Origin: Thermoproteota archaeon
GTDB taxonomy: Archaea > Thermoproteota > Methanomethylicia > Culexarchaeales > Culexarchaeaceae
DNA: 64,000 bases
Direction: 5' to 3'
NCBI GenBank assembly: GCA_020833005.1
Contig: JAJHRD010000002.1
Location: 70,287 to 134,286, forward strand
The notes under the pieces were generated by a model. It made no database searches and had not been told where the DNA came from. It saw only the letters and a program-made list of their open reading frames with translations. The translations under genes and the position numbers were made by a program. Positions 22,043-54,413 of the stretch are shown piece after piece; within the stretch, counting starts at the first letter, position 1; each line of letters begins with the position of its first letter.

Positions 22043-22097
22043 TTTATAATAGATAATACGATTTGAAAAGTAGTTTAACAAAATTTGGTGACGGACA

Positions 22098-22562: not shown

Positions 22563-22578
22563 ATGAGGTGAAGGTAAT

Positions 22579-22929: not shown

Positions 22930-22931
22930 GT

Positions 22932-23087: not shown

Positions 23088-23097
23088 GGGGATTAGA

Positions 23098-23388: not shown

Positions 23389-23401
23389 GGGTAAAAACAA
23401 T

Positions 23402-34058: not shown

Positions 34059-34225
34059 AATATTTAATGATGATATTGTATGAGGGAGTTAATCATTATT
34101 AGATGATGAAGTGATAAGGTTAACGCCTCACAATTTATTTAATTGATGAAAAAGCGAAATATTTATTGGTTAGTATTTACGCTTAACATTTTTGACTTAA
34201 TATTTTAATGTTTGGTGATATGGGA

Positions 34226-34468
34226 ATGAGTAAAAAGTTTTCCATTTTTGATCATGTTCTTGTGCCACAACACATACTATTAAGTAAGAAAGAAGCTGAG
34301 GAAGTTTTAAAACAACTCGGTGTAAAACCTCATCAATTACCATACATACGTGTTAGTGATCCAGCTGCAAGAGCTTTGGGGGCTAAGAGGGGGGATATAA
34401 TAAAGATTATCAGGAAGAGTCCTACAGCAGGAACTACGATAGTATATAGGTATGTGGTTCCAGGGTGA
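34226..34468 (+). CDS. rpoH: DNA-directed RNA polymerase subunit H (Rpb5)
   Basis: [65 protein letters not shown] 34226 preferred over ATG 34208. Confidence 0.9.
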
Positions 34469-37400: not shown

Positions 37401-37803
37401 AGGGGTCGTATATTATCAGAAACTACACCACATGGTTGCAGACAAAATACATGCACGTGCAAGAGGACCTGTACAAATACTAACCAGACAACCAACGGAA
37501 GGAAGGGCTAGGGAAGGGGGGCTGAGATTTGGAGAAATGGAGAGAGACTGCTTAATAAGTCATGGAGCATCAATGCTACTAAAGGAGAGATTACTAGAAG
37601 AATCTGACAAAACAACAGTATATGTGTGTGAAAGATGTGGGACTATAGCATATTATGATGCAAATAGGAGAGAATACGTTTGCAGGATTTGTGGAGATAA
37701 GGCAAAAATCTCACCAGTAATAATGTCATATGCATTTAAACTACTCTTACAAGAATTAATGAGTTTGACAATTATGCCAAAAATAATCTTGGAGGAGATG
37801 TAA
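34465..37803 (+). CDS. rpoB: DNA-directed RNA polymerase subunit B (unsplit)
   Basis: 1112 aa covering the full Rpb2 homology, including [13 protein letters not shown] and the C-terminal Zn motif CERCG...CRICG. GTGA overlap with rpoH. Confidence 0.97.
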
Positions 37804-37804
37804 T

Positions 37805-40462
37805 ATGGAAAGCGTAGTTGAAACGTATAAAAAGATAAAATCATTACAATTTGGATTACTATCACCAGACGTTATTAGGAAAATGTCAGTTGCCATAATA
37901 TCCACACCAGACACTTACGATGAAGATGGATGGCCCATAGATGGAGGATTAATGGATAGAAGACTTGGAACCATAGAGCCAAGTCAGAAATGTGCCACAT
38001 GTGGCAATAGAATGGGAGAATGCCCAGGACACTTTGGACATATAGAATTGGCGAGACCAGTAATACATGTTGGATTCGCAAAAATAATACATCAATTGTT
38101 AAGAGCAACATGTAGAAGATGTGGCAGAATACTCTTAACACAAGAGGAAATAAACAATTATAAAAGGATAATCAATGAATACTCAAAACGCTGGCCTGAA
38201 TTGCTAGATGACCTCTATAGAAAGATACTTTCCAAATGCCTCAAGGCGAAGGAATGCCCACATTGCAATGAAGTACAATACAAGATAAAACTGGAAAAGC
38301 CAACAACATACTATGAAGAAACGAAAGAGGGAGTAGTGAGATTATCCCCAATAGAGATAAGAGCAAGACTTGAAAGAATACCAGATGAAGATCTAACCCT
38401 ACTGGGAATAGACCCAAAGAATGCAAGACCAGAATGGATGGTATTAACAGTGCTACCAGTTCCACCAATAGCTGTAAGACCATCAATAACACTGGAATCT
38501 GGAGTTAGATCAGAAGACGATTTAACACATAAATTAGTGGATATTGTACGTATAAATGAACGTTTAAAAGAAAACATAGATGCAGGAGCCCCGCAACTGA
38601 TAATCGAAGATTTATGGGAATTGCTACAGTATCATGTGAACACATACTTTGATAATGAAGTGTCAGGTATACCTCCAGCACGCCACAGATCCGGAAGACC
38701 TCTGAGAACACTAACCCAGAGATTGAAGGGGAAGGAGGGAAGATTTAGAAGTAACCTATCTGGAAAGAGAGTAGACTTTTCAGCTAGAACCGTAATATCA
38801 CCAGATCCAAACATAAGTATAAATGAAGTTGGTGTACCAGAAGAGGTGGCAAAAATACTAACAATACCAGAAAGAGTTACCCCCTGGAATATTGAAGAGT
38901 TAAGGAAACTTGTTTTAAATGGACCCTTCAAGCATCCTGGAGCAAATTACATAATTAGACCAGATGGTAGAAGAATAGATTTGAGATATCCGAAGGATTT
39001 AAGCGCCATAGCAAACAATCTGGCACCAGGATACATAGTTGAAAGACACATTAGAGATGGAGATATAGTGATATTCAATCGCCAACCATCTCTACATAGA
39101 ATGTCGATAATGGCCCATAGGGTAAAAGTTTTGCCATACAAGACGTTTAGGTTAAATCTATGCGTGTGCCCACCATACAATGCAGATTTTGATGGAGACG
39201 AAATGAACCTACACGTACCACAGAGCGAAGAAGCAAGAGCTGAAGCAGCAATACTCATGCTAGTACAAGAACAGATACTATCACCAAGATATGGAGGCCC
39301 AATCATGGGTGCACTGCAAGACTACATAACGGGAGCGTACATGTTAACAAGGAGAGAAACTTTGCTAAATAAAGAAGAAGTCTGCAAATTACTATATGCT
39401 GCAGGATACGATGGCCCACTACCCCCACCAATAATTAAAGAACCAAAGGAAATGTGGTCTGGAAAACAAATTGTAAGCCTATTCTTACCCCCAGACTTAA
39501 ACTTTGAAAAGAAGGCAAACATATGCAATAAGTGTGATGAATGTAAGAAGGAGAAATGTCCATACGATGCATATGTAGTTATAAGGAATGGAAAATTAAT
39601 TTCAGGAGTCTTTGATAAAAAGATAATAGGTGCAGGACAACCGGAAAGCTTACTTCATGAAATCATCAAAAGATATGGTTCAGAAGCCGCTAAAAAGTTC
39701 ATGGACCAAGTTTTCAAACTCTTCCTAGCATACATAGATATGCATGGATTCACTATAAAGCTTGATGATCAAAGCATACCAATTGAAGCTAGGGAAACCA
39801 TAAAGAGTGTACTTAAAAAGGCTGAGGAAGAATCGAAGGAGATTATAAGGGCATACAAGGAGGGAGAGTTGCAGAGACTGCCAGGAAGAACACTTGAAGA
39901 GACATTCGAAATGAAAATGATGGAAGTATTAAGTAATGCAAGAGATACTGCTGGGAAAATAGCTGCAGAATATCTAGGTTTAAACAATAGTGCCGTAATA
40001 ATGGCGAAAACGGGTGCTAGAGGGAACATACTTAACCTAACACAAATGGCAGCCGTCATAGGACAACAATCAGTAAGAGGCGAAAGGATATCACGCGGAT
40101 ATAACAATAGGACACTACCACACTTCAAATGGGGGGATATGGGTGCAGCTGCAAAGGGATTTGTTTACAACTCCTATAAAACAGGATTAAACCCACTGGA
40201 ATTCTTCTTCCACAGCATGGGTGGAAGAGAGGGACTTGTGGACACAGCAGTAAGAACATCGCAAAGCGGGTATATGCAGAGGAGACTTATGAATGCACTA
40301 CAAGATCTAAAAGTAGAATATGATGGAACTGTAAGAAATGCAAGTGGGAAGATAATTCAATTCACATATGGAGAAGATGGGGTGCACCCAGCAAAAAGCT
40401 ATCATGGTAAAGCTGTAGACATTGACAAAATAATAAAAGAAGTTTTAATGGAGGGGAGTTAA
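37805..40462 (+). CDS. rpoA1: DNA-directed RNA polymerase subunit A'
   Basis: 885 aa with Zn motifs (CATCGN...CPGHFGH) and the catalytic [10 protein letters not shown]. Confidence 0.97.
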
Positions 40463-41641
40463 ATGGAAACATTAACTAAAGAAGAAATATTTAAAGAGAT
40501 AGATAAATTAAGCAACATACTTCCAGTATCAATAATTGAAGAATTAAAAGTAAAGCTTCAAAACATCAAACTCACAAAGGAAACTTTAAAAAAGATATTA
40601 GATAGGGTTGTAAACGAATATCTCAATTCACTTGTAGAACCAGGAGAACCCGTAGGGGCGGTGGCAGCACAATCCGTAGGTGAACCAAGCACACAAATGA
40701 CCCTCAGAACATTCCACTATGCAGGAGTCAGAGAATTCAATGTAACATTAGGATTACCAAGATTAATAGAAGTATTAGATGCCAGAAGAAACCCATCAAC
40801 ACCAATGATGACAATATACCTAGATGAAGAACACAAGTATGATGAAGAGAAAGCAAAGGAAGTAGCGAGAATGATAGAAACGACATACATTGAAAACATC
40901 ATAAAGAATGTTGAAATAGATTTTGTATCTGCATCAATAACATTATTAATGGATTTAGAAGTAATGAGAGACAAAGGGATAGACATAGAAAACGTAGTCA
41001 ACGTCATTGAAAAAATGAATATAGGAGAAGTAGAGGTGCAAGGAGAAGACAAGATAATCATACATACGAACATATATGAAATAAATAGGTTACAGAAGAT
41101 AAAGAATAGGATAATGAGTACAAAGGTAAAGGGAGTAAAAGGGATAAATCGTGTAATAGTGAGAAAAGAAAAGAACGAATATGTGCTATACACTGAAGGA
41201 TCAAATTTAGCTGCAGTACTTAGGATAAAGGGGGTGGACGCAACTAGAGTTTACACAAACAATATACATGAAATAGAAGAAGTCTTGGGGATAGAGGCTG
41301 CGAGAAATGCCATAATAAAGGAAGCTATGGGAGTTTTAGAGGAACAAGGGTTAGATGTTGATATAAGACATGTAATGTTAATAGCAGACATGATGACTGC
41401 AGATGGAACAATTAAACAAATAGGTAGACATGGCGTAAGTGGGGAAAAACCAAGCGTATTAGCAAGAGCAGCATTCGAAGTAACAATTAACCATCTACTT
41501 GAGGCAAGTGTACGCGGTGAAAAAGACGAACTACTTGGAGTCACGGAAAACGTAATAGTTGGACAAATAGTACCAGTAGGTACTGGGATAGTTCAAATGC
41601 TTATGACTATGAGAAGTGCAAAAAATGAAGGGAAAAATTAA
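40463..41641 (+). CDS. rpoA2: DNA-directed RNA polymerase subunit A''
   Basis: 392 aa with trigger-loop region homology (GEPVGAVAAQSVGEPSTQMTLRTFHYAG). Confidence 0.95.
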   Translation: METLTKEEIFKEIDKLSNILPVSIIEELKVKLQNIKLTKETLKKILDRVVNEYLNSLVEPGEPVGAVAAQSVGEPSTQMTLRTFHYAGVREFNVTLGLPRLIEVLDARRNPSTPMMTIYLDEEHKYDEEKAKEVARMIETTYIENIIKNVEIDFVSASITLLMDLEVMRDKGIDIENVVNVIEKMNIGEVEVQGEDKIIIHTNIYEINRLQKIKNRIMSTKVKGVKGINRVIVRKEKNEYVLYTEGSNLAAVLRIKGVDATRVYTNNIHEIEEVLGIEAARNAIIKEAMGVLEEQGLDVDIRHVMLIADMMTADGTIKQIGRHGVSGEKPSVLARAAFEVTINHLLEASVRGEKDELLGVTENVIVGQIVPVGTGIVQMLMTMRSAKNEGKN

Positions 41642-41707
41642 ATTAACCCTTATGCATTTTAAATATGAAGCCAAAAGTGAACTTGAAGTGCTTGGACGTG
41701 AGAAGCA

Positions 41708-42031
41708 ATGTCAATAAAAATAGAAAAAGAACTTCAAGTAATAGCTAAAACGGGAAAAATGGTGTTTGGATCAAAAAGCGCTATAAAGAATGCCAAACTT
41801 GGAAAGGCAAAAATGATAATAATTTCATCAACAATACCAGAAGACATAAAAGCTGACATACAATACTACTCAAAGCTTTCACGCATACCAGTAATTGAAT
41901 TCAAAGGATCAAGCTGGGATCTTGGAGCAGCATGCGGAAAACCATATATGATATCAGCAATATCAATACTTGACTTCGGAGAATCCGAAATACAAAAATT
42001 GGTGGAAGGTGATGCAAAATCCCAAGCATAA
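41708..42031 (+). CDS. rpl30e: 50S ribosomal protein L30e
   Basis: 107 aa. L7Ae/L30e-fold sequence (GKMVFGSKSAIKNAKLGKAKMIIISS) in its conserved post-rpoA2 position. Confidence 0.9.
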   Translation: MSIKIEKELQVIAKTGKMVFGSKSAIKNAKLGKAKMIIISSTIPEDIKADIQYYSKLSRIPVIEFKGSSWDLGAACGKPYMISAISILDFGESEIQKLVEGDAKSQA

Positions 42032-42033
42032 AA

Positions 42034-42453
42034 TTGACAATAGATGAAATGAATTACATAGCATTATTCGAAAGCGTAACCGGAGCAGTCACAAAGGATT
42101 GCATAATAGATGAAAATAATGATAGGATTATATTCATAGTCAGACAAGGGGATATGGGACTAGCTATAGGCAAAGGAGGGATAAACGTAAAAAGGTTGAA
42201 AAACATATTGAATAAGAACATAGAAGTTGTTGAATATGCGGAAGACCCTGAAACCCTAATTAAACATGCCTTAGCACCAGCAAGGGTAAAAAGTGTAAAA
42301 ATCATGAAAACACCAGACGGCCAAAAGACGGCTTACGTAACAGTTGAACCTCAAGATAAAGGTATAGCCATTGGAAAAGATGGCAAAAATATTTTAAAAG
42401 CAAAATTAATTGCAAAAAGATACTTCGACATAGAGAAGATAGTTATGCTATAA
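42034..42453 (+). CDS. nusA: NusA-like KH-domain transcription termination/antitermination protein
   Basis: 139 aa with two KH GxxG motifs (IGKGGINVKRL; IGKDGKNILKA). The start is TTG 42034 or ATG 42049. Confidence 0.85.
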   Translation: MTIDEMNYIALFESVTGAVTKDCIIDENNDRIIFIVRQGDMGLAIGKGGINVKRLKNILNKNIEVVEYAEDPETLIKHALAPARVKSVKIMKTPDGQKTAYVTVEPQDKGIAIGKDGKNILKAKLIAKRYFDIEKIVML

Positions 42454-42488
42454 GGATTTATAAATTGTGTGGCAACATAATTTAATCC

Positions 42489-43211
42489 ATGAACAATAAT
42501 GCTAATTTCATATCTTCAAAAGCAATCTATAAAGATGTAATATTCGAAGGAAAATGTATAATTCTTGGACAAACAAAAATAGGATCCAACACTATTATAG
42601 GGGAGGGAAGCATAATAGGCTACCCTACAAAAGCCAGCATAAAGGAGCTAATTAAATTAAAAGAGGTAAGCTGGCTAAAATATGACGAGGTAAGTGTAGG
42701 TGCAATTATAGGTGAAAATAGCATAATACGTTCAGGGACAATAATATATGAGCATGTGAGCATCGGAGATAATTTTGAGGGAGGTCATGGAATATTAATA
42801 AGAGAAAATACAACTATAGGGAGAAACGTAAGAATAGGTACCAACACTGTGATAGATGGATATGTAAAAATAGGGAACAACGTAAATATACAAACAGCAG
42901 TATATATACCACCAAAATGTGTAATAGAAGACGATGTATTTATAGCACCAAGAGTTTGCTTTACTAATGATAAGTATCCACCAAGTAAAAGGTTATGTGG
43001 AGTTACCGTTAAAAGGGGGGCTGTTCTCGGAGCAAATTGCACATTAATTTCAGGAATAACTATAGGCGAAAATGCGGTGGTAGCTGCTGGAGCTGTTGTT
43101 ACAAAAGATGTGCCAAGTAACGTTGTTGTAGCAGGGGTACCTGCCAGAATTATTTCAACTAGGAAGGAATTCGATGATAAGAAGAGCATGTGGGAAATTG
43201 AATTTACCTAA
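42489..43211 (+). CDS. Left-handed beta-helix (hexapeptide-repeat) acyl/acetyltransferase
   Basis: 240 aa with many [LIV]-G-x4 hexapeptide repeats ([14 protein letters not shown]...[25 protein letters not shown]...). Confidence 0.75.
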
Positions 43212-43644
43212 CAGGCTTTTGTTTCTTACCTTTCAATAGCGCATCTAAGGATACTCCATTAACCTTTATAACCTTATATCTAACTCCGGGAAGATCACCG
43301 TAAGCCTTCCCCATAGACCCACCTATACCCTCTATAATTACTTCATCGTGCTCTTCAATGAAATTGAGCGACCCATCCTTAGGTAAGAAGGCTGTTACTT
43401 GCTTACCATTCTTTATAAGTTGAACTCTAACGCACTTCCTAACAGCAGAGTTCGGCTGTCTACTCTCTATACCAACCTTTTCAATTACTATCCCCCTAGC
43501 TTGAGGAGCTCCTTCCAGGGGATCTGCTTTAATGTCGAGCATTAACATCCTTCTCTTGTAGTCTCTCTGCTTCCACCTGAACTTTTTCCTCTTAGCCTTA
43601 AGCTTTCTTGCAGCATATAGTCCACGAGGGGATTTTGAACCCAA
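43204..43644 (-). CDS. rps12: 30S ribosomal protein S12 (on the strand opposite to the rpo cluster)
   Basis: 146 aa, TTG start. ...[41 protein letters not shown]... is diagnostic. Its 3' end overlaps the acetyltransferase 3' end by 8 nt. Confidence 0.95.
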
Positions 43645-43739
43645 GATCCCACCTTAAATAACACAACTTTAAATTAATTCACGGAATCTTGCATTTAAAT
43701 ATTTTTCTTAGTGTAAAAAGTGATGTTAGGATTGTTTTA

Positions 43740-44699
43740 TTAAACGTTTTCACATCTATCCTTCAGGTCCTCCCAAACTGCATCCACATATTCCTGCAAC
43801 TTCTTTATTACCCATTGATTTTGTGGAGTGAATAGATGACTGAATCTACCTTGAACTTTAAGGAATTCCTCTATTGGCTTCTTCATTTCTGGATTTTTAG
43901 CTATCATTAAGCTTCTATCAGTTAACCTATATACACCATTATCATACTCCCATAGTGGGAAGTAACATGTTTCAACAGCTTTTCTGCAAATATCAATGGT
44001 TAAAGCCTCGCTATGCCTCCATCCTCTTGGGCATGGTGATAATGCATGTATAAATGTTGGACCATTAACTTCAAGAGCTTTCCTAGCCTTCCTAATTAGA
44101 TCTAGGTAATGTGCAGGAGTCGCTGTGGCAACATATGGCACCTTATGCGCAACAACTATATCTGCTATTGGCTTCTTATTTTCAGATTTACCTGGAATAA
44201 CCTTTCCAGCAGGCGTTGTGGTTGTCGATGCTCCAAGCGGTGTCCCCCCACTTCTCTGAATTCCAGTATTCATGTAAGCTTCATTATCGAGCAGAACATA
44301 TAGGAAATCATGCCCTCTTTCTAATGCCCCACTCAATGCTTGTATCCCTATATCGTAAGTTCCACCATCCCCTGCAAAGGCTATGACATCTATATGATCA
44401 TACTTGCTCCTCCCCTTCTCACGTAGAATTTTTGAGGCTGCTTCTATCCCAGAGGCCACGGCAGCAACGTTTTCAAAAGCCACATGAATCCAAGGAACAT
44501 TCCAAGATGTGTATGGGTAGATTGTGGTTGAAACCTCAAGACAACCTGTGGCTGTTGCCACTATAGTAGGCCCCCTAGTGGCGAGCAAAATTTGCTTAAC
44601 TATTATGGGCTCAGCGCATCCAGCACACAACCTATGACCTGAAAGCAACCCAAGAGGTTTCTTTGCAGCTTCCCTAATATTAAATCTGAATGTACTCAT
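43740..44699 (-). CDS. porB: 2-oxoacid (pyruvate/ketoisovalerate-type):ferredoxin oxidoreductase beta subunit
   Basis: TPP-binding motif (AFAGDGGTYDIGIQALSGA...LDNEAYMNTG) and N-terminal Cys ligands (CAGC). Confidence 0.85.
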   Translation of the reverse strand: MSTFRFNIREAAKKPLGLLSGHRLCAGCAEPIIVKQILLATRGPTIVATATGCLEVSTTIYPYTSWNVPWIHVAFENVAAVASGIEAASKILREKGRSKYDHIDVIAFAGDGGTYDIGIQALSGALERGHDFLYVLLDNEAYMNTGIQRSGGTPLGASTTTTPAGKVIPGKSENKKPIADIVVAHKVPYVATATPAHYLDLIRKARKALEVNGPTFIHALSPCPRGWRHSEALTIDICRKAVETCYFPLWEYDNGVYRLTDRSLMIAKNPEMKKPIEEFLKVQGRFSHLFTPQNQWVIKKLQEYVDAVWEDLKDRCENV

Positions 44700-44700
44700 A

Positions 44701-45912
44701 TCACCTCACCCCCAAGAATTTGACTTCCCCACCTTCCAATTTTGGCAATTCCTCAAACATCTTTTCAATTAAAGCTGGCGGCGTATCTCTGCCTCCCAAG
44801 CCATATATGTAATTGACAATTTTAGGTTTCCTTTTACTATTATAGAATGCTGCTAGAGTTTCAACGAAAACAGGACCTCCTATACCACCATAAGCTCCAC
44901 TTCTATCCATAACACCAATAACTTCAACATCCTTTAAAGCGTCAACAATCTCCCTGTACGGAAATGGTCTAAAAGTTCTGAGCCTAAGCACACCAACCTT
45001 CTTACCTCTACCTCTAAGTTTTTTAACAATACTTCTAACAGTACCAGCCGTAGACCCTAAAACTATAACTGCCAATTCAGCATCATCTAAACCATATCCA
45101 TCTATAAACCCATCACCATACCTTCTACCACTAATACCATAATATTCATCATGGATCTCTCTTATAACAGATCTAGACTTCTCCATAGCTTCATGTTGCT
45201 GAACTTTATGCTCAAAGTAGTAGTCATATAGATCCAGCGAACCAAATGTCAGTGGCTTCTCAGGATCTAAAACCATTGGAACCTTCCCCATCCCTGGAAC
45301 CTCTATCTCCACAGGCTTCCTCACACCAACGAATCTTCTCACAACATCATCCGGAAGCACCTCAACCCTCTGCAATGTATGACTAATCGTGAAACCATCT
45401 ATCGTCACCATCACTGGTAACTGAACATCCTCATGCTCAGCTATCCTGAAGGCTTGAATTATGGTATCGTAGGCTTCTTGAGCATCCTCACAGTACATCT
45501 GTATCCAGCAGGAATCCCTACATCCCATGCTATCACTATGATCACAATGTATATTTATTGGTGCAGACAACGCCCTATTAACGACAGCCATAACTATTGG
45601 AAGCCTAAGCCCAGAAGCTATATATAGTATTTCCCACATTAAAGCCAAACCCTGTGAAGATGTGGCTGTGAAAGTTCTTGCACCTAAAGCTGCAGCACCA
45701 ACGCAAACACTCAATGCTGAATGCTCAGATTCCACTGGAACGAAAGAGCATTTAACCTCACCATCAGCAACAAATTCCGAGAACCTTTCAACTATTATGG
45801 TTTGTGGAGTTATTGGATATGCTGACACAACATCAACATCACATTGCTTAACAGCGAAGGCTATAGCCTCATTACCATTAAGCCCCATAACAATCTTATC
45901 CATCACCCTCAC
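44701..45912 (-). CDS. porA: 2-oxoacid:ferredoxin oxidoreductase alpha subunit
   Basis: 403 aa. GNEAIAFAVKQCDVDVVSAYPITPQT is a typical POR/VOR alpha N-terminus. Confidence 0.85.
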   Translation of the reverse strand: MRVMDKIVMGLNGNEAIAFAVKQCDVDVVSAYPITPQTIIVERFSEFVADGEVKCSFVPVESEHSALSVCVGAAALGARTFTATSSQGLALMWEILYIASGLRLPIVMAVVNRALSAPINIHCDHSDSMGCRDSCWIQMYCEDAQEAYDTIIQAFRIAEHEDVQLPVMVTIDGFTISHTLQRVEVLPDDVVRRFVGVRKPVEIEVPGMGKVPMVLDPEKPLTFGSLDLYDYYFEHKVQQHEAMEKSRSVIREIHDEYYGISGRRYGDGFIDGYGLDDAELAVIVLGSTAGTVRSIVKKLRGRGKKVGVLRLRTFRPFPYREIVDALKDVEVIGVMDRSGAYGGIGGPVFVETLAAFYNSKRKPKIVNYIYGLGGRDTPPALIEKMFEELPKLEGGEVKFLGVR

Positions 45913-46184
45913 CCTCTCACCATACTAATACATTTAACTGGGCATTCATTGGCACATATACCGCACCCCTTACAATAATCATGTTTCTCACGGACTCTCT
46001 CACCATCCCATTCCATAGCCATATCTGGGCAAAGGATCCAGCATATTAAACACTTAGTACACTTAGTTTGATCTATCTTCGGTTTAAATGGAGACCAATC
46101 TCCAGTTTTATTTTCAATGGAAAGCTTCCAAGCAACCCCACCTATGGGTATTTCCCTCCAACTCTTAAGTTCACTCAACTCCAC
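45909..46184 (-). CDS. porD: 2-oxoacid:ferredoxin oxidoreductase delta subunit (2x[4Fe-4S] ferredoxin)
   Basis: CTKCLICWILCP and CKGCGICANECP motifs. The start is uncertain: GTG 46184, TTG 46178 or the track's ATG 46220. All overlap the porG 3' end. Confidence 0.8.
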   Translation of the reverse strand: MELSELKSWREIPIGGVAWKLSIENKTGDWSPFKPKIDQTKCTKCLICWILCPDMAMEWDGERVREKHDYCKGCGICANECPVKCISMVRG

Positions 46185-46737
46185 CCACCCCCCTAGTCTC
46201 AGAATAAGCTCTCTCCACAACTTTAATATTCAATTCAGCAACTTTAGCTGGAAACCTCTCCCTTAAAACCTCTTTAACACTATCTAAACTTACAATCCTA
46301 ACAACTCTAAGGAGACCACCAATCATGGCAGTATTGGTTATTGGTCTCCCCAGAATTTCCAAGGCTATCTCAGTGGCTGGAGTCGTATAAACAGTCTGTC
46401 TACCAGATATCCTCAACATTTTGAGGATATTTTTAGGATCCTCCTTTGAATTAACTATAACCTTCCCCTCACTTTTCAACCCCTCAGTTACATTCAATGA
46501 TTGCAATAAGGAATCATCTAAGACTATGACTACGTCAGGCTCGTAGATATTGCAGTGCAACTCAATAGGCTCATCACTAATCCTTGTGAATGCCATTACA
46601 GGAGCACCCATCCTCTCAGGACCAAATGTTGGAAAGGACTGCACATACTTCCCCTCCTTCAAAGCTGCTTGAGCAAGTATGTTACTTGCAGTCCAAGCGC
46701 CCTGTCCACCCCTACCATACCATACCAGCTCCAACAT
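46171..46737 (-). CDS. porG: 2-oxoacid:ferredoxin oxidoreductase gamma subunit
   Basis: MLELVWYGRGGQGAWTASNILAQAAL is a typical gamma N-terminus. The 47 hydrophobic upstream codons in the track ORF are judged non-coding. Confidence 0.8.
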   Translation of the reverse strand: MLELVWYGRGGQGAWTASNILAQAALKEGKYVQSFPTFGPERMGAPVMAFTRISDEPIELHCNIYEPDVVIVLDDSLLQSLNVTEGLKSEGKVIVNSKEDPKNILKMLRISGRQTVYTTPATEIALEILGRPITNTAMIGGLLRVVRIVSLDSVKEVLRERFPAKVAELNIKVVERAYSETRGVGGVE

Positions 46738-46898
46738 ACCCCTCACACGTAAGTCATGTAAAAACTTATAAGGTGGATTAACATAAACCTTTTTATTCCC
46801 AATACATAAATAGAATAACAATATTAAACAACTGAAGGTACTGACAAAATTTAAATTATAGTTCACACCCTTTTTCATGATGAAAAAGTGGTGGAAAA

Positions 46899-47477
46899 TT
46901 GAGTGCGCAACAAACGGAGATAAAGCTCTTCGACAAGTGGAGTTTCCATGATGTAGAAGTTAAAGATCCAGGGCTGAGAAGGTACATATGTTTAAAGCCA
47001 GTCTACATTCCACATACTGGAGGTAGGCATGAGCATAAGAAATTCGGAAAAGCAGAAGTACCGATAGTTGAAAGATTAATAAATAAATTGATGAGGCCGG
47101 GTAAGAATATGGGTAAGAAGCATCTTGCAACAAACATAGTTAAACAAGCCTTTGAAATAATACATTTAAGCACAGGTGAAAATCCAATACAAGTACTGGT
47201 TAGAGCTATAGAGAATTCAGCTCCAAGAGAAGAGACCACCAGAATAATGTATGGTGGAATAGTTTACCATCAATCAGTGGATGTATCACCACTCAGAAGA
47301 CTAAACTTAGCATTAAAGTTCATAACTGAAGGTGCGAGAAGCGCGGCTTTTGGAAACCCAAAAAGCATAGAAGAAGCTTTGGCTGAAGAGATTATAAAGG
47401 CAGCAAAATCAGATCCATCATCATACGCTATACAGAAGAAGGAGGAAATAGAAAGGATAGCTTTAGCTTCAAGGTAA
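46899..47477 (+). CDS. rps7: 30S ribosomal protein S7
   Basis: 192 aa, TTG start. IKLFDKWSF...[14 protein letters not shown] pattern. Confidence 0.95.
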
Positions 47478-47548
47478 ACTTAATTTAAGACCACAAAAAA
47501 CTTAAATATGAAAGTAATTCACTAATTTGCGAGAGAGGAGATTGTAAT

Positions 47549-48844
47549 ATGTCTGAAAAGCCACATCTAAACATTGTGGTAATAGGTCATGTAGACCACG
47601 GTAAAAGCACAACAATGGGACACCTACTATACCTAACGGGAAACATAGATGAACGTACAATGAAGACTTTAGAAGAAGAATCTGAAAAGATGGGTAAAGG
47701 ATCCTTCAAATTCGCATGGGTCATGGATAAATTGAAGGAAGAGAGGGAGAGGGGATTAACAATAGACTTATCCTTCTGGAGATTTGAAACGCCAAAATAC
47801 TACTTCACAATAATCGATGCCCCAGGACATAGAGACTTCGTAAAAAACATGATAACAGGAGCTTCACAAGCAGATGCAGCTATACTAGTGGTATCAGCTA
47901 AGAAAGGGGAGTACGAAGCAGGCATGGGCGCAGCAGGACAAACAAGAGAACATGCATTCCTAGCAAAAACGCTAGGTATAGATCAGCTCGTTGTAGCAAT
48001 AAACAAAATGGATGACCCAACAGTAAACTACAGTAAAGAAAGGTACGAAGAGGTTAAGACTGGAGTAGGTAAATTCCTAAGAATGATAGGATATGATATA
48101 AACAAAATCGATTTCATACCAATATCCGGATGGTATGGAGACAACTTGGTAACAAGAAGTGATAAAATGCCCTGGTATAACGGACCAACACTAGTAGAAG
48201 CATTGGACAAACTCACAGAACCCCCAAGACCAATAGACAAACCATTAAGAATACCAGTACAAGACGTTTACACGATTTCAGGTGTTGGAACAGTACCAGT
48301 AGGCCGCGTTGAAACTGGAGTATTAAAAGTTGGAGACACCGTACTATTCCTACCAGCCAAGAAGAGTGGTGAAGTTAGAAGTATAGAGATGCATCACCAA
48401 CCACTACAAAAGGCAATACCGGGAGACAACATTGGATTCAACGTGAGAGGTATATCAAAGGAGGATATAAGGAGGGGGCATGTATGCTGCCACCCCACAA
48501 ACCCAGTTAAAGTTGCTAAATCATTCATTGGAAGAATATTTGTGTTATACCATCCAACAGCCATAGCCGCAGGGTACACACCAGTCCTACACATACACAC
48601 AGCAACCGTGGCTGTGAGATTCGATCAACTACTAAAGAAGATAGATCCAAGATCTGGTGCAACAATAGAGGAAAATCCATCATTCCTAAAGCAAGGTGAT
48701 GCAGCGATAGTTAAATTCGTACCACTAAAACCAGTATGCATGGAGAAGTATGCAGATATCCCACAACTAGGTAGATTTGCCATAAGAGATATGGGAAGAA
48801 CAATAGCTGCAGGAATAGTAATGGATATAGAAGAAGAGAAGTAA
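47549..48844 (+). CDS. tuf: Translation elongation factor 1-alpha
   Basis: 431 aa with G1-G4 motifs (GHVDHGKST, DAPGH, NKMD). Confidence 0.97.
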   Translation: MSEKPHLNIVVIGHVDHGKSTTMGHLLYLTGNIDERTMKTLEEESEKMGKGSFKFAWVMDKLKEERERGLTIDLSFWRFETPKYYFTIIDAPGHRDFVKNMITGASQADAAILVVSAKKGEYEAGMGAAGQTREHAFLAKTLGIDQLVVAINKMDDPTVNYSKERYEEVKTGVGKFLRMIGYDINKIDFIPISGWYGDNLVTRSDKMPWYNGPTLVEALDKLTEPPRPIDKPLRIPVQDVYTISGVGTVPVGRVETGVLKVGDTVLFLPAKKSGEVRSIEMHHQPLQKAIPGDNIGFNVRGISKEDIRRGHVCCHPTNPVKVAKSFIGRIFVLYHPTAIAAGYTPVLHIHTATVAVRFDQLLKKIDPRSGATIEENPSFLKQGDAAIVKFVPLKPVCMEKYADIPQLGRFAIRDMGRTIAAGIVMDIEEEK

Positions 48845-48866
48845 ACGAAGATAACCAGCGAAATAG

Positions 48867-49184
48867 GTGAAGAAATTGGTTAGAAAAGCGAGGATAAAGC
48901 TTTCCAGCACCAATCACCAAAAATTGATGGAAGTATGTGAGGAAATAAAGAGGATTGCAAAAACCACGGGAGTAAGAATAGCTGGACCAATACCATTACC
49001 AACCAAGAGACTAGTAATACCAGTAATGAGAACTCCCTGCGGAGATGGAACAAAAACTTGGGACAAATATGAAATGAGAATACATAAAAGGATAATAGAT
49101 ATAGATGCCGATGAGAGGACAATGCGCCAAATAATGAGGATAAGAGTTCCACCCGAAGTCAAAATAGAGATTGAATTGACATAA
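48867..49184 (+). CDS. rps10: 30S ribosomal protein S10
   Basis: 105 aa, GTG start. ARIKLSS...[12 protein letters not shown]...[16 protein letters not shown]. Confidence 0.9.
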
Positions 49185-49263: not shown

Positions 49264-49363
49264 CGCCGGGGGCGGGATTCGAACCCGCGCGGCCTCAAAG
49301 GCCATCGGCTTTTCGCGGAAGACTTAGCAAGCCGACGCCCTAACCAGACTAGGCGACCCCGGC
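49264..49363 (-). tRNA. tRNA-Ser (GCT) with about 14-nt intron in the anticodon loop
   Basis: Reverse complement: acceptor GCCGGGG/CCCCGGC. Anticodon stem TCGGC/GCCGA enclosing ttGCTa + agtcttccgcgaaa + a. Long variable arm and T-arm GCGGG-TTCGAAT-CCCGC. Confidence 0.8.
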
Positions 49364-49423
49364 CCAAATATAGCTTTAAGAAAAGTTTCTTTTATCTGTT
49401 TCCTTCAAAATATGTGGAGATGT

Positions 49424-50386
49424 ATGTATAAAGTTATTGACTTATTCTGTGGTTGCGGAGGATTTGCAAGAGGATTCGTGGAGGAAGGGTTTGAAATATT
49501 GTTAGGTATAGATATAGATGAGAATTCACTAGCTACATATTCCAGTAATGTAAAAGGAGCCATTACATGGAGGATGGATTTAAGGGAAGTACACTCACAA
49601 GACATAACAAACATCATAGGCTCAAGCCCAGATGTGATCATAGGAAGCCCTCCATGCGAACCATTCACACCAGTTAACCATAAAAGAATGAAGAATGAGC
49701 TTGACAGACTATACATAGATGAAATGGGAAAACTAACATTACACTTCATACGTATAGTTGGAGATTTAAAACCAAAAATTTTCGTAATGGAAAACGTCCC
49801 ACAAATAGTTGAAGGAGAATTGAAGTGGGCATTAAAGTGGGAATTCAACAGAGTTGGATATAAGAGGGTATACTTCAATATACTCAGAGCAGAAGATTCA
49901 CAAACACCATCAATTAGAAGACGAATTTTCATATCAAACATACCAATTAAAATTAAACGTGAAAGTAAAAGGGTAAATGTGGAAGAAGCTCTGAGGGGAT
50001 TACCAGACCCGGAGGAGATGATAGACTACCCCAATCATGAAATAACACCATTAACTGAAAAGAAGATTAAGAAGATAGCTAAGCTAAGGTGGGGGGATGC
50101 TTTAATATTATTTAAGGGAGCTGATGGAAAAATATATAGGAATATGATTAGACTACATCCAAAACGGCTTGCACCAACGGTTATGGGAGGATCAAGATTT
50201 ATACATCCATACGAAAATAGGTTATTAACCGTTAGGGAGCAGGCGAGGCTAATGGGATTTCCAGACACCCACATATTCTACGGCTCAAGGGAAGAACAAT
50301 ACAACCAAATTGGAGAAGCTGTCCCTCCAACATTATCTAGGGCTATTGCGAAACAAATTAAAAGAGTACTTGATGAGGGATGGTAA
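49424..50386 (+). CDS. C5-cytosine methyltransferase (Dcm/COG0270-type), solitary
   Basis: Motif I VIDLFCGCGG, motif IV GSPPCEPFT, motif VI ENVPQ, motif IX RLLTVREQARLMGFPD, motif X QIGEAVPP. ATG 49424 preferred over ATG 49412. Confidence 0.85.
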   Translation: MYKVIDLFCGCGGFARGFVEEGFEILLGIDIDENSLATYSSNVKGAITWRMDLREVHSQDITNIIGSSPDVIIGSPPCEPFTPVNHKRMKNELDRLYIDEMGKLTLHFIRIVGDLKPKIFVMENVPQIVEGELKWALKWEFNRVGYKRVYFNILRAEDSQTPSIRRRIFISNIPIKIKRESKRVNVEEALRGLPDPEEMIDYPNHEITPLTEKKIKKIAKLRWGDALILFKGADGKIYRNMIRLHPKRLAPTVMGGSRFIHPYENRLLTVREQARLMGFPDTHIFYGSREEQYNQIGEAVPPTLSRAIAKQIKRVLDEGW

Positions 50387-50881
50387 ATGTACGAAAGAAT
50401 AAAGAACCTGATAATGACAATACATAACATAAGTTCACAACAAAGGTTAATTGAACTAGCAAAAGTATTCTATGGATTGGGATACAAGAATCTAGTAATA
50501 TCTAAAGCCACTGGAACAGCAGCTCAGATTGGAATACCAGAAGTACAAAAGATATCAATAAAAAATGGGGGGAAACTCATAATAACTGCAGACTTGGAAG
50601 ATGCAATAGAACTAATAAAACCAAACACGATAATCCTATTAACGCAAAAAGCGTACGGAAAAACCGCATATAAACCTGAAAACATTGCAGAGAAACTAAG
50701 TAGGGGGTTAACCGTAATGATAGTGATCGGAGGATTAGAACCTGGATTAACATCAAGAGATCTATCCTTAGGCGAACCCACATATATTCAAGGCATAGAA
50801 GGAGACTTAGGGTCAGTTGGATTGGCAACTATAGCCCTATATGAATTGAAAAAGCATATAGAAAATCATAAAACATGTTAA
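50387..50881 (+). CDS. Uncharacterised protein with SPOUT (SpoU/TrmH-like) motif pattern
   Basis: 164 aa. IHNISSQQRLIELAKVFYGLG, VMIVIGGLEPGLTSRDL and GDLGSVGLATIALYEL resemble SPOUT motifs 1-3. The ATG directly abuts the methyltransferase stop (TAAATG). Confidence 0.45.
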   Translation: MYERIKNLIMTIHNISSQQRLIELAKVFYGLGYKNLVISKATGTAAQIGIPEVQKISIKNGGKLIITADLEDAIELIKPNTIILLTQKAYGKTAYKPENIAEKLSRGLTVMIVIGGLEPGLTSRDLSLGEPTYIQGIEGDLGSVGLATIALYELKKHIENHKTC

Positions 50882-51306
50882 TGCAATATTAGGAATGGTC
50901 TAAACTTTAAAATATCCTTTAAAACTCTATCCACATAATCATTAAGATAATTCGCGACATCCTGTGTTGTGAGAACCCCATAGATAATCCCATCCCTAAC
51001 AACTGGAAGTTTACGAACCCTCTTCTCACTCATAATAGCGGCAGCCTCGCTTAAAGTGGCATCAGGATCGATAGTTAAAAGTGGGGTCGTCATAATATCA
51101 GATAACTTAGTGGTTTTAGGGTCTCTATCGGCAGCTAAAACCTTACTGATCAAATCCTCTTCAGTAACAATTCCAACAGGTTTACCGCCATCCAAAACAA
51201 TGATGTATGGAATCTTCTTCTCAACCATAAGCTTTGCAGCTTCAAAAACGCTCAAATTCTTGTCAGCAGATAAAATAACCCTAGACATATAATCTTTAAC
51301 AGACAT
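50878..51306 (-). CDS. CBS-domain pair protein
   Basis: 142 aa with two CBS repeats (VGIVTEEDLISKV; IYGVLTTQDVANYL). Confidence 0.8.
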   Translation of the reverse strand: MSVKDYMSRVILSADKNLSVFEAAKLMVEKKIPYIIVLDGGKPVGIVTEEDLISKVLAADRDPKTTKLSDIMTTPLLTIDPDATLSEAAAIMSEKRVRKLPVVRDGIIYGVLTTQDVANYLNDYVDRVLKDILKFRPFLILH

Positions 51307-51483
51307 ATTTAAATCACTAAAATAATTTAAAGATAATATTGAAATATAAAGTTTGACTTACAAAACGATAATAAGAATTCTGATTCAATTACAGAATTAT
51401 CAAATAATTATGCAAAAACAGCACATGTAAGTTTAAGGGGATGATCATTCTTTGTAAAGATGGAAGTTTCCTTTTCTGTCTGA

Positions 51484-51560
51484 TGGTGGGCGGGCTGGGA
51501 TTCGAACCCAGGACCACCGCCGTGTCAGGGCGGTATCCTAACCAGCTAGACGACCCGCCC
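51484..51560 (-). tRNA. tRNA-Val (GAC), CCA encoded
   Basis: Reverse complement: acceptor GGGCGGG/CCCGCCC, anticodon stem CCGCC/GGCGG, loop ctGACac, T-arm CTGGG-TTCGAAT-CCCAG, A + CCA. Confidence 0.9.
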
Positions 51561-51671
51561 CCTCTCATACTTACATAGGACTGAAATTAAATAAACTTTT
51601 TTTGTTATATCCCTTTTTATTTGGAATTGTTAAGTTCAAAATTTTATATCTATGAGGTAATTTATATTATT

Positions 51672-51745
51672 GGGCCGGTAGCTCAGCCTGGAAGAGCATC
51701 CGCCTCGCACGCGGGAGGTCGCGGGTTCAAATCCCGCCCGGTCCA
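51672..51745 (+). tRNA. tRNA-Ala (CGC)
   Basis: Same body as tRNA-Ala(GGC), including G3:U70. Anticodon loop ctCGCac. Confidence 0.9.
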
Positions 51746-51895
51746 CTAAACTTGAACCTAATAGACCCCTAAAGTATAGATGACTATTTATAGTGTCATC
51801 ATAGGTCATTTGTAAGAAATGATGCACTGAAAATGATGTTAACAGGATTTAAAGGCATTAAATAGTTGTGCATTTATAGGCGATATTCTCCAGCT

Positions 51896-53275
51896 CTATA
51901 TTTTCTTGCCTGGATTCATGATGTTGTATGGGTCTAGAGTCTGCTTTATCATTGATAGTAATTTTAATGTGTTTGCATCTATTTCAAGAGGCAGATACTG
52001 TTTTTTAGCTATGCCAATACCATGTTCTCCACTTAAAGCACCATTATTTTTTACTGCTATCTTGAATATGTTTTCTTTAATTTTCTCTATTTCAGGGGTT
52101 AGAGATTTCTCCTTTGGAACTAGTATGCTTGGATGTAAATGTCCATCACCAGCATGTCCAAAAACAGCGATATTTACATTGAATTTACTGCTTAATGATT
52201 TTATTTCCATAATCGTTTTCGGGAGTAGAGATACTGGCACTATAATATCTTCATCTATTCTACCACCGTAAACCTTTTCAAGGGATTCTCCAGCAAGCTT
52301 CCTTTTCCTCCACATTTCATCAGCATTATAATATACATGAACATTTTCATCAGGTATTCCAAGGTTTTTTAGATAAGACGCCAGAGCTTCAAGCTTATTA
52401 TCCATATCGTTACTTGAGAAGGCCTCAATCTCCAATAGTATTATTGCATCCGATTCTGGGAGACTTGCATTATACGCTTTGTTTATAGCAGCTATGGTTA
52501 TATCATCCATTAACTCTATTGCAGAAATGTCTATGTTTAGTTTTGTCAACGCAACTATAATTTCGCCTGCATTTTCCAAATTATTGCTGGATATGGATAC
52601 TCCAATTCTATATTGCGGTTTAGGGGCAACCCTCAACAATGCTTTAGTTATTATCCCAAGAGTCCCCTCACTACCAACAATAAGTGACACTAAATTGTAT
52701 GCGGACACCCACTTCTTTGTCCTTGAACCAATCCACACCTTACCAACAGAGGAAGTTATAACTTCCAACCCTAAAACCCAATTTTTAATGGTGCCATATT
52801 TGTAACTGCGAGGGCCAGCAGAATTTTCAGCAAGCATCCCACCTATAGTGCATTGATCTCCAGTTGCAGGATTTGGGGGTAAGAATAGGTTATATTTAGA
52901 TAGAAAGTCATTTAAATTGTCATATATGACTCCAGGCTCCACCAAAACTTGCAAATTATTTAAATCGAATTCCAAAATCCTATTCATCCGTTTAAAATCC
53001 ACAATTATTCCACCAAATATTGGGACACTACCACCGCTAAGTGAAGTCCCGCCACCTCTAGGAATAAGTGGAATTCTAAATTCCTTAGCCACCTCAACCA
53101 ATTTTTCCACTTCTTCAGAAGTTTCAGGTATTACCGCAAGAGATGGTTTACCTTTAATGTATGATTGATCCTCCTCATATTGTTTTAAGATTTCCTCATC
53201 AATAATGATCCTATCCCCAAATATGCTTCTCAACTTGGATAAACACAGTTCACTAACACCACGCATAAGGCTCAC
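51896..53275 (-). CDS. FAD-linked oxidase (GlcD / D-lactate dehydrogenase family)
   Basis: 459 aa. FAD-binding PCMH domain (PRGGGTSLSGG) and a C-terminal GEHGIG...LDP.NIMNPGK pattern. Confidence 0.8.
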   Translation of the reverse strand: MSLMRGVSELCLSKLRSIFGDRIIIDEEILKQYEEDQSYIKGKPSLAVIPETSEEVEKLVEVAKEFRIPLIPRGGGTSLSGGSVPIFGGIIVDFKRMNRILEFDLNNLQVLVEPGVIYDNLNDFLSKYNLFLPPNPATGDQCTIGGMLAENSAGPRSYKYGTIKNWVLGLEVITSSVGKVWIGSRTKKWVSAYNLVSLIVGSEGTLGIITKALLRVAPKPQYRIGVSISSNNLENAGEIIVALTKLNIDISAIELMDDITIAAINKAYNASLPESDAIILLEIEAFSSNDMDNKLEALASYLKNLGIPDENVHVYYNADEMWRKRKLAGESLEKVYGGRIDEDIIVPVSLLPKTIMEIKSLSSKFNVNIAVFGHAGDGHLHPSILVPKEKSLTPEIEKIKENIFKIAVKNNGALSGEHGIGIAKKQYLPLEIDANTLKLLSMIKQTLDPYNIMNPGKKI

Positions 53276-53367
53276 CCATCACAGCAATATTCGATGTTAA
53301 ATTTATTAATGTTTGGTAAATAACATTATCCTTCCACATTGGCATTGTAAAAGAGAAAGTTTAGATG

Positions 53368-53442
53368 TGGGCCCGGTGGGATTTGAACCCACGACCCCCC
53401 GGTTATCAGCCGAGTGCTCTAACCATGCTGAGCTACGGGCCC
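53368..53442 (-). tRNA. tRNA-Ile (GAT)
   Basis: Reverse complement: acceptor GGGCCCG/CGGGCCC, anticodon stem CTCGG/CCGGG, loop ctGATaa, T-arm GTGGG-TTCAAAT-CCCAC. Confidence 0.9.
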
Positions 53443-53510
53443 ATGCAGACAATATATCTATCTACAAAAATTTAAGATTTCATTTCATAATAAATTCTTT
53501 TTGGACGCAC

Positions 53511-54413
53511 ATGTATGATGAGGAGTATATTGAAAAAACTTTGAAGGCTGGTGAAATTGTAAATAGAGTTTTAAGGGATTTACCAAGAATGGTGAAGCCT
53601 GGAGTAAAAGTTTTTGATTTATGTGAGAAGATAGAGAATCTAATAATTGAGGGAGGAGGGAAGCCAGCTTTCCCATGCAACATATCCATAAACAACATAG
53701 CAGCCCATTATACAGCGTTTCCAGAAGATCAATCAATAATTCCAGATGATGCGGTGGTTAAGGTTGATATAGGTGCCCATTTTGATGGTTACATAGTGGA
53801 TGCGGCAACCACCATATCATTCAACAGCAAGTACGATGACATGGTTGAAGCGAGTAGGATAGCTTTGAAGAATGCATTGAAAGTAATTAAGCCGGGGGTA
53901 AGGGTGAGCACAGTGTCAAAGGAAATTGAAAGGACAATTAGTGGATTTGGGTATAAGCCAATAAGCAATTTAACGGGACATATGCTTAAACGATACATAT
54001 TGCATGGCGGGAAAAATATACCTAATGTTTATGGGGAATATCCATGGATCATGGAGGAAGGGGAGATATATGCAATTGAACCATTCGCTACTGATGGTAT
54101 AGGTAGCGTTACTGAAATGCAACAAGCATACATATACTCTTTAGCAAAAGTACATTCTGGAAGAACAAGACTGGAAAAAGAATTATTAAGGTACATTTAT
54201 GACAACTTTAAAACACTTCCATTCTGCGAAAGGTGGTTGAAAAATTTTAATGTGAAGCAGGAAAATATAAGGGAAATAATTTATAGATTGGTTGAGAATG
54301 GGGCATTAAACATTTATCCAGTTTTGAGAGAAGTTAAGAATGGTATAGTAACTCAATTTGAAACAACAGTGATAGTTTCAAAAGAGGGACCAATAATAAC
54401 TACGGAAATGTGA
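53511..54413 (+). CDS. map: Methionine aminopeptidase, type 2 (archaeal)
   Basis: 300 aa from ATG 53511 (MYDEEYIEKTLKAGEI...). Pita-bread fold with the inserted helical domain. The N-terminal 66 codons of the track ORF run antisense through tRNA-Ile and are rejected. Confidence 0.9.
   Translation: MYDEEYIEKTLKAGEIVNRVLRDLPRMVKPGVKVFDLCEKIENLIIEGGGKPAFPCNISINNIAAHYTAFPEDQSIIPDDAVVKVDIGAHFDGYIVDAATTISFNSKYDDMVEASRIALKNALKVIKPGVRVSTVSKEIERTISGFGYKPISNLTGHMLKRYILHGGKNIPNVYGEYPWIMEEGEIYAIEPFATDGIGSVTEMQQAYIYSLAKVHSGRTRLEKELLRYIYDNFKTLPFCERWLKNFNVKQENIREIIYRLVENGALNIYPVLREVKNGIVTQFETTVIVSKEGPIITTEM

Follow-up and report, generated by a model that had tools for sequence, protein, structure and literature searches.

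The rpo/str string is among the few gene orders that survive across nearly all Archaea, and the question raised by the locus described here is how, and when, it came to be broken by metabolic genes. The locus lies in a 64,000-nt stretch of archaeal DNA (positions 70,287–134,286 of contig JAJHRD010000002.1, assembly GCA_020833005.1; this whole stretch is referred to as the window, and all coordinates count from its first letter). Its source is a member of the uncultured class Culexarchaeia, family Culexarchaeaceae, with Candidatus (Ca.) Culexarchaeum nevadense as the closest named relative. In the window, the gene of ribosomal protein S12 is separated from S7 and inverted, and a putative sugar N-acetyltransferase gene as well as an operon of a predicted 2-oxoacid:ferredoxin oxidoreductase, porGDAB, are located between NusA and S7. 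This rearranged cluster appears, with a probability of about 0.85, to be ancient and fixed, with a single origin on the Culexarchaeia stem.

All ten genes of the cluster (rpoH, rpoB, rpoA', rpoA'', L30e, NusA, S12, S7, EF1alpha, and S10) are found within positions 34208–49184. S7, EF1alpha, and S10 are contiguous and co-oriented on the + strand (46899–49184). S12 is not next to NusA, with the acetyltransferase gene lying between them and S12 itself placed on the − strand, and it is also separated from S7 by 3.25 kb, the two genes being on opposite strands. The non-translation genes inside the cluster number five and amount to 4.1 kb in total. A preliminary description of the window had read the string as broken after NusA by the acetyltransferase, by a − strand S12, and by porB-porA-porD-porG, and as resuming with S7-EF1alpha-S10; the Pfam and NCBIfam scans bear this out, apart from the start of porG (see below).

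Distribution and Age of the Rearranged Order

A scan of the GTDB species representatives (one genome per species) with S12 yielded 80 loci, onto which 15 proteins of the cluster were mapped by tblastn. The order NusA> LbH> <S12 <porBADG S7>, with arrowheads giving the strands and LbH denoting the left-handed β-helix (hexapeptide) acetyltransferase, was found in Culexarchaeia loci only. Every Culexarchaeia locus that was recovered, from more than 12 independent assemblies and about seven species-level lineages, has the rearranged order. In Ca. Culexarchaeum nevadense (L004), the locus is collinear with the window over 13.6 kb at 87% nucleotide identity, and the same order is present in a 136-kb JGI contig (L093), in a 505-kb NCBI contig (L084), and in the loci L085, L005/L096, L086/L087, L090/L095, and L094. 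It is also present in Ca. Culexmicrobium thermophilum (L010/L092), and both families of the class are hence represented.

In turn, NusA, S12, and S7 follow each other on the same strand in all loci of Methanomethylicia (L006–L009, L012–L014, L016, L018, and L045) and of Nezhaarchaeales (L011 and L026). Among the approximately 75 S12 loci from outside Culexarchaeia, those that include NusA or S7 keep S12 adjacent and co-oriented, with the exception of a few lineage-specific breaks described below. Since the same order is found in both families and in no sister lineage, the event dates to the Culexarchaeia stem. The preliminary description had favored a recent event, to be abandoned if the arrangement turned out to be typical of the lineage, which it is.

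A neighbor-joining (NJ) tree calculated from concatenated RpoA', RpoA'', NusA, S12, S7, and EF-1alpha (2105 columns) places exactly the loci that bear the arrangement in one clade, recovered in 100 of 100 bootstraps and sister to Methanomethylicia. This clade consists of two deep subclades that are about 79% identical in the cluster proteins. Culexarchaeia have been described as a monophyletic sister clade of Methanomethylicia that includes a terrestrial family, Culexarchaeaceae, and a marine one, Culexmicrobiaceae (PMC9723716), and both the NJ topology and the two subclades agree with that phylogeny. The paper describing Culexarchaeia makes no mention of the rearranged gene order (PMC9723716).

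While the core order persists, the regions flanking the cluster vary from genus to genus. Past S10, the window and Ca. C. nevadense have a − strand tRNA gene, a C5 DNA methyltransferase, a DUF2122 protein, a CBS protein, and further tRNA genes (window 49264–53442). In other Culexarchaeia lineages (L084, L086, L090, and L092), the genes after S10 are archease, RtcB, a SPOUT methyltransferase, L3, L4, L23, and L2. These differing downstream flanks indicate that the genus of the window has a second, younger breakpoint, at which the str and S10/spc clusters came apart. The younger breakpoint adjoins a tRNA gene and might mark an integrated element.

Authenticity of the Junctions

The preliminary description had allowed for a mis-orientation of the 43.2–46.9 kb block, and such an artefact of assembly or binning, yielding a mis-oriented or chimeric block, could be envisaged in a sequence that is metagenome derived and whose breakpoints are located where genes overlap or are separated by short spacers. 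An exact-protein look-up of S12 returned two loci that are 100% identical to the window (L001 and L003), as well as a strain variant from another sample and sequencing run (L002), which has the same gene order and differs by 56 mismatches over 15,258 nt (99.6% identity). More than 10 other metagenomes yielded contigs, the longest of 505 kb, that also have this order. The junctions are the same in more than 12 independent assemblies, which were made by different assemblers from different samples and which include contigs of 135–505 kb and the variant with 56 single-nucleotide differences, and they are kept even where nucleotide identity between species is only about 73%.

No inverted or direct repeats were found at the borders of the block (43.2 and 46.9 kb) that might have misled an assembler, and no mobile-element genes are present there; a Pfam scan detected no transposase at the block. 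The longest inverted pair within 41900–47700 comprises 25 nt with 72% complementarity and is located away from the borders. The explanation by an artefact is refuted for practical purposes, and hardly any likelihood is left to it.

History of the Rearrangement

The ancestral order would have been that of the sister lineages, in which L30e-NusA is followed by S12-S7-EF1alpha-S10. From this state, S12 would have been split from S7 and inverted, and five unrelated genes, the acetyltransferase and the four genes of the porGDAB operon, would have been taken up between NusA and S7. The preliminary description had proposed that a single inversion of a block made of the oxidoreductase operon and S12 accounts for the change. 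The geometry of this proposal holds, as flipping 43204–46737 puts S12 head-to-tail before S7, and an inversion is plausible as the last step. It is nevertheless insufficient, because all sister lineages have NusA-S12-S7, whereas un-inverting the block leaves NusA-LbH-porGDAB-S12-S7, so that an insertion of five genes is required as well. The minimum history is therefore one block insertion and one inversion, i.e., at least two events. Three events, namely two insertions and an inversion, are more likely, because LbH and por are unlinked elsewhere.

Intermediates, either NusA-LbH-porGDAB-S12-S7 or an inverted S12 free of the insertions, were absent from the approximately 160 loci inspected, which came from the S12 scan of the GTDB species representatives, from a scan of JGI metagenomes, and from graded look-ups of LbH and PorA homologues. 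The JGI scan, based on four aligned LbH proteins from Culexarchaeia, added four further loci of the class, each in the derived order, and 76 more distant LbH loci, in none of which por or S12 was nearby. A pre-assembled block of LbH and por was not found outside Culexarchaeia, where the two were never neighbors in the loci examined. In the closest LbH locus from outside the class (58% identity, in a metagenome-assembled genome of Desulfurococcales), a PAPS-reductase/Fe-S gene comes next, and the por operons of three other Thermoproteota (64–70% PorA identity) are located in three unrelated contexts. The nearest relatives of LbH and of porGDAB alike are found among Thermoproteota, so that there is no indication of a horizontal acquisition from a distant source.

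A recent single inversion of a pre-existing block of porGDAB and S12 in this genome or species is, in consequence of these comparisons, very improbable. The arrangement is common to both families and is thus old, the precursor that such an inversion requires was seen in 0 of about 160 loci, LbH and por were never adjacent outside Culexarchaeia, and the borders of the block are devoid of inverted repeats.

Gene Map of the Locus

The identities and strands of the genes in the window were assigned from a listing of open reading frames (ORFs) with Pfam and NCBIfam scans (Table 1); several domain matches and gene calls were taken from the copy in L001, the locus identical to the window. The uS12 match to NF003254 covers residues 2–146 of 146, and the species-representative scan recovered one S12 locus from each of three Culexarchaeia genomes (L004, L005, and L010).

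Table 1. Features of the rearranged rpo/str locus in window coordinates.
Feature	Position	Strand	Evidence or remarks
rpoH (RNA polymerase subunit H/Rpb5)	34208–34468	+	PF01191 on identical L001 gene; tblastn map
rpoB	34474–37803	+	Rpb2 domains 1–7 on identical L001 gene
rpoA' (A1)	37805–40462	+	Rpb1 domains 1–5
rpoA'' (A2)	40463–41641	+	PF04998
Ribosomal protein L30e	41708–42031	+	NF002172, 130.7 bits (cutoff 77)
Archaeal NusA-like KH protein, final gene of the ancestral rpo part	42034–42453	+	TIGR01952, 175.7 bits (cutoff 74)
NusA-LbH spacer, 35 nt	42454–42488	+	Direct reading; TATA-like TTTATAAAT about 30 nt ahead of the LbH ATG
Hexapeptide (LbH) acetyltransferase, 240 aa, inserted gene 1	42489–43211	+	PF00132, 90 bits
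uS12, TTG start, inverted relative to NusA and S7	43204–43644	−	NF003254, 261.6 bits (cutoff 196), full length
porB-S12 intergenic region, 95 nt	43645–43739	−	T5 tract; box resembling a transcription factor B recognition element (BRE) and TATA box, GAAAAATATTTAAAT; GGTG
porB (beta subunit, thiamine pyrophosphate (TPP)-binding)	43740–44699	−	PF02775, 71.6 bits; NF008819, 389 bits, slightly below cutoff 405
porA (alpha subunit), 400-aa gene call	44701–45903	−	PF01855 and PF17147; NF040682, 496 bits (cutoff 550)
porD (delta subunit, 2x[4Fe-4S] ferredoxin-like), 91-aa gene call	45909–46184	−	TIGR02179, 85 bits (cutoff 60)
porG/porC (gamma subunit), corrected start	46171–46737	−	TIGR02175, 232.8 bits; PF01558
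Divergent porG/S7 intergenic region, 161 nt	46738–46898		TATA-like boxes facing porG (AAAGGTTTATGTTAAT) and S7 (AAATTTAAATTATAG, + strand); GGTGG before the S7 TTG
uS7, now first gene of the S7-EF1alpha-S10 unit	46899–47477	+	NF003106, 322.8 bits
EF-1alpha	47549–48844	+	TIGR00483, 704.5 bits
uS10	48876–49184	+	PF00338 on identical L001 gene

The overlap between the 3' ends of the acetyltransferase and S12, which the preliminary description had put at 8 nt, can be read directly in the sequence (43204–43211). It is limited to Culexarchaeaceae (the window, L004, and L084), the other subclade having spacers of 2–32 nt at this position. The S12 start codon is TTG in the same three Culexarchaeaceae lineages and ATG in the Culexmicrobiaceae-like ones. 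The longest ORFs of S7 and NusA in the window also begin with TTG, and the automatic call sets the NusA start at 42049.

The start of porG, and with it the edge of the block, had been placed at 46878 in the preliminary description, and this needs correction. The long ORF that begins there (235 aa, also the automatic gene call in L001–L003) carries a 47-aa, AT-rich N-terminal extension that lies outside the TIGR02175 profile, the alignment beginning at residue 48. In Ca. C. nevadense, a stop codon falls within the extension, and other lineages have no such extension. The start of porG is thus most likely the ATG at 46737, which makes the divergent region 161 nt long instead of 20 nt. The long ORF would engulf the putative promoter region between porG and S7.

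Promoter-like Elements and Proposed Transcription Units

Comparison of the spacers in seven Culexarchaeia lineages reveals recurring short elements. The porB-S12 spacer (77–115 nt) cannot be aligned among these lineages apart from three of them: a T-tract (T4–T6) soon after the porB stop codon (T5 in the window, 21 nt past the stop, at about 43715–43719); the motif GAAAA(N1-2)TTTAWWTA, approximately 35–50 nt before the S12 start; and GGTG, 6–8 nt before that start (7 nt before the TTG in the window). AT-rich, TATA-like boxes are present in the NusA-LbH position in 7/7 lineages, and the divergent porG/S7 region, approximately 135–165 nt long, includes boxes facing porG and S7 at equivalent positions, again in 7/7. 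An Rfam scan of 42300–47000 at E ≤ 1 returned no known leader or small RNA. A regular-expression scan of the window for BRE/TATA patterns gave an approximately 3–5-fold enrichment in non-coding DNA; it was too crude, its strict pattern missing the S12 box, and it was not used as evidence.

These elements would divide the locus into four transcription units. The first would extend from rpoH to NusA, with LbH read through from the rpo operon, transcribed from its own TATA box, or both. The second would be a monocistronic S12, transcribed from the BRE/TATA box about 50 nt upstream, and the third would be porGDAB, ending at the T-tract just past porB. The fourth, S7-EF1alpha-S10, would be driven by a new promoter in the 161-nt region, back-to-back with that of porG. 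In all lineages, practically no room is left for terminators between the convergent LbH and S12, and some antisense overlap of their transcripts is therefore likely.

A similar arrangement of signals is already seen in relatives with the canonical order. In canonical-order Thermoproteota, the NusA-S12 spacer (45–110 nt) contains a TATA-like box (e.g., GTTAAATAAT in Methanomethylicia) and GGTG; in the euryarchaeal loci examined, this spacer comprises approximately 10–20 nt. The S12-S7 spacer in the canonical-order relatives (Methanomethylicia) is 8–25 nt long. The presence of a box before S12 in these relatives, together with their short S12-S7 spacer, suggests that S12 probably kept an ancestral promoter that travelled with the gene and that it was S7-EF1alpha-S10 that needed a new one. 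On the simplest reading of these spacers, S12-S7-EF1alpha-S10 would already have formed a separate transcription unit in the ancestor. The preliminary description had predicted that S12 has its own promoter within 43645–43739, and the conserved promoter-like box found there is consistent with this prediction. It had also held that S12 became uncoupled from both S7 and RNA polymerase; this stands with respect to S7, from which S12 is separated by only 8–25 nt in relatives, but the uncoupling from RNA polymerase is probably not new, given the TATA-like box and GGTG in canonical Thermoproteota.

An unlikely, if still credible, reading makes S12 the fifth cistron of a porGDAB-rps12 operon transcribed from the porG/S7 region, with no promoter of its own, which would tie S12 to the expression of POR. 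S12 is indeed on the same strand as the por genes and only 77–115 nt past porB in all lineages, the T-tract is weak (4 T) in Ca. C. nevadense, and the arrangement is stable across the class. This spacer is, however, far longer than the gaps inside the por operon, and in 7/7 lineages it retains the BRE/TATA-like box and the T-tract in a sequence that is otherwise unalignable. Relatives, moreover, have a promoter-like box directly upstream of S12 already. A monocistronic S12 that carries its own promoter remains the preferred reading.

Several points weigh against the picture of a single ancient event that left S12 with its old promoter. The sampling of the class is sparse, with approximately seven species-level lineages, and all of the genomes are metagenome assembled. 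The phylogeny, a simple NJ one, was derived from the cluster's own genes. The promoter and terminator roles proposed here rest on short AT-rich motifs in a genome with 62% A+T, and a T-tract of only 4 nt, as in Ca. C. nevadense, may permit read-through from porB to S12. Finally, the S12 box and the box of the sister lineages are compared over about 15 nt, which makes their homology no more than plausible.

Inserted Acetyltransferase and Oxidoreductase

The first inserted gene encodes a protein in which PF00132 matches in four stretches, with PF14602 also matching, and which reaches no NCBIfam equivalog cutoff. Its best solved relative is QdtC (3fs8, E = 2e-46, residues 72–229), followed by the WxcM-like 4mzu and by WlbB (3mqg), and members of the family, at about 50% identity, are common throughout Thermoproteota. 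By these matches, the protein is probably a QdtC/WlbB-like N-acetyltransferase with a nucleotide-amino-sugar acceptor. Its most likely role would be in glycan biosynthesis rather than in the modification of ribosomal proteins or of RNA polymerase.

The genes of porGDAB are consecutive on the − strand, in the order gamma-delta-alpha-beta, with PF01558, a Fer4 dicluster, PF01855 and PF17147, and PF02775, respectively, and neighboring genes overlap by at most 14 nt or are no further than about 5 nt apart. The translation of porD includes two CxxCxxCxxxCP [4Fe-4S] motifs, CTKCLICWILCP and CKGCGICANECP. Among the best NCBIfam models, PorA_Arch (496 bits, cutoff 550) and PorB (389, cutoff 405) fall slightly below their thresholds, and the generic subfamily models of gamma and delta pass. 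The predicted oxidoreductase is of the POR/VOR type, with pyruvate as its likely substrate. Culexarchaeia have been predicted to ferment peptides and sugars using POR, IOR, and KOR (PMC9723716). In subunit set, order, and domain content, the operon matches the four-subunit POR/VOR operons of other Thermoproteota and of Euryarchaeota, and its PorA is 60–70% identical to homologues from Desulfurococcales, Bathyarchaeia, and Sulfolobales; the Culexarchaeia operon differs from the others in genomic location only.

Whether the order has been kept by selection or by inertia can be considered in light of these assignments. Selection might act if the back-to-back promoters of porG and S7 co-regulated pyruvate/ferredoxin metabolism and translation factors, or if LbH acted on the product of a neighboring gene, and the five-gene insertion has indeed stayed unchanged while both flanks were rearranged, with a divergent region of conserved length (approximately 135–165 nt) and conserved boxes. 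Neutral inertia, however, predicts the same persistence in a tightly packed region, where no break could occur without damage to essential genes. The closest solved relatives of LbH, QdtC and WlbB, are nucleotide-sugar and not protein acetyltransferases, its homologues in other archaea are found in unrelated contexts, and no shared regulator site was identified. Maintenance by selection is thus improbable. We can speculate further that the pairing of porGDAB with S7-EF1alpha-S10 and the solitary S12 are selected class-wide, with the bidirectional region coupling the supply of reduced ferredoxin and acetyl-CoA by POR to the production of elongation factor and ribosomal proteins, and with S12 dosed independently and possibly modulated by antisense read-through of the convergent rpo/acetyltransferase transcript across the 8-nt overlap, but this more elaborate proposal is less probable still.

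Comparison with Other Archaeal Clusters

With the canonical archaeal str/L30e cluster, the Culexarchaeia locus shares the intact, co-oriented segments rpoH...NusA and S7-EF1alpha-S10 and the presence of ten genes within 15 kb. As in other Thermoproteota loci, there is no EF-2 gene between S7 and EF1alpha. In contrast to the canonical cluster, S12 is on the opposite strand and next to neither NusA nor S7, and S7 leads its unit.

The cluster is also split in several Asgard genomes, in which rpoA1-rpoA2-L30e-nusA are apart from S12-S7 (PMC10833476). These clusters resemble the Culexarchaeia one in being broken at the NusA/S12 boundary, which in Thermoproteota looks like a boundary between transcription units, as suggested by the TATA-like box in the spacer. 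In the Asgard genomes, however, S12 stays with S7, whereas in Culexarchaeia the S12/S7 junction is broken as well and S12 stands alone. Additionally, the pieces of the Culexarchaeia cluster remain in one place, with a metabolic operon between them.

Other breaks were observed among the loci mapped here. In two Freyarchaeota-type loci (L019, 4983–11117, and L024, 2727–8860), which count among the split clusters of Asgard archaea, S12 and S7 are convergent with a NusA-L30e-rpoA''-rpoA' segment on the opposite strand (S12>S7> facing <NusA<L30e<rpoA''<rpoA'). In Thermofilaceae/Thermoproteales (L020 and L021), there is no S7 after S12 within 2.4–8.7 kb, in Desulfurococcaceae (L027 and L051) about 600 nt are inserted between S12 and S7, and in Thorarchaeota (L040) 1.5 kb lie between NusA and S12. 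Unlike in Culexarchaeia, none of the five latter loci has an inverted S12, a por operon, or the acetyltransferase at the break. The breaks in Asgard, Thermoproteales, and other lineages indicate that, in the course of archaeal evolution, the cluster has repeatedly been broken at either border of S12, and the Culexarchaeia case adds to this evidence that the two borders are weak points of the cluster. It is unusual in that S12 alone is isolated and inverted and that a metabolic operon lies inside the cluster.

The arrangement does not constitute a new molecular system; it is a variant, diagnostic of one lineage, of a conserved cluster that was already known, and the inserted genes are ordinary housekeeping or metabolic ones. 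As a clean, class-defining exception to the rpo/str order, it is a useful marker of the rare genomic change kind, which independently supports the monophyly of Culexarchaeia and their separation from Methanomethylicia and which offers a simple synteny criterion for recognizing fragmentary contigs that belong to the class. It also implies that the S12/S7 junction inside an operon can be broken and the break fixed, and that S7-EF1alpha-S10 can gain a new promoter.

Surroundings of the Locus

The part of the window upstream of the cluster (1–34000) is dense in information-processing genes, including those of S8e, TFB, FtsJ, Trm1, RNase HII, fibrillarin-Nop5, Orc1/Cdc6, Nep1, S19e, eIF6, prefoldin, FtsY, Spt5/NusG-L11-L1-L10-L12, and AlaRS, as well as of a DUF434/DUF5616 protein. 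The last of these is located between AlaRS and rpoH in L084 too.

The Orc1/Cdc6 gene (17899–19098), which is flanked downstream by tRNA genes, precedes rpoH by approximately 16 kb. No repeats resembling origin recognition boxes were found around it (15800–23500), the repeats there being tRNA-derived only. If an origin were located near this gene, only the S12-por block would be oriented head-on within the stretch between positions of approximately 22 and 50 kb, which otherwise runs on the + strand.

Two Rfam tRNA matches of 98–100 nt that were not reported by ARAGORN, at 16115–16212 (+) and 49264–49363 (−), are probably intron-containing tRNA genes. Further downstream, the longest ORF of an M24 peptidase (53313–54413, with a TTG start at 53313) runs across an oppositely oriented tRNA-Ile gene (53367–53442); since the automatic call for this peptidase in L001 is 300 aa long, its real start is placed downstream, at about 53511.

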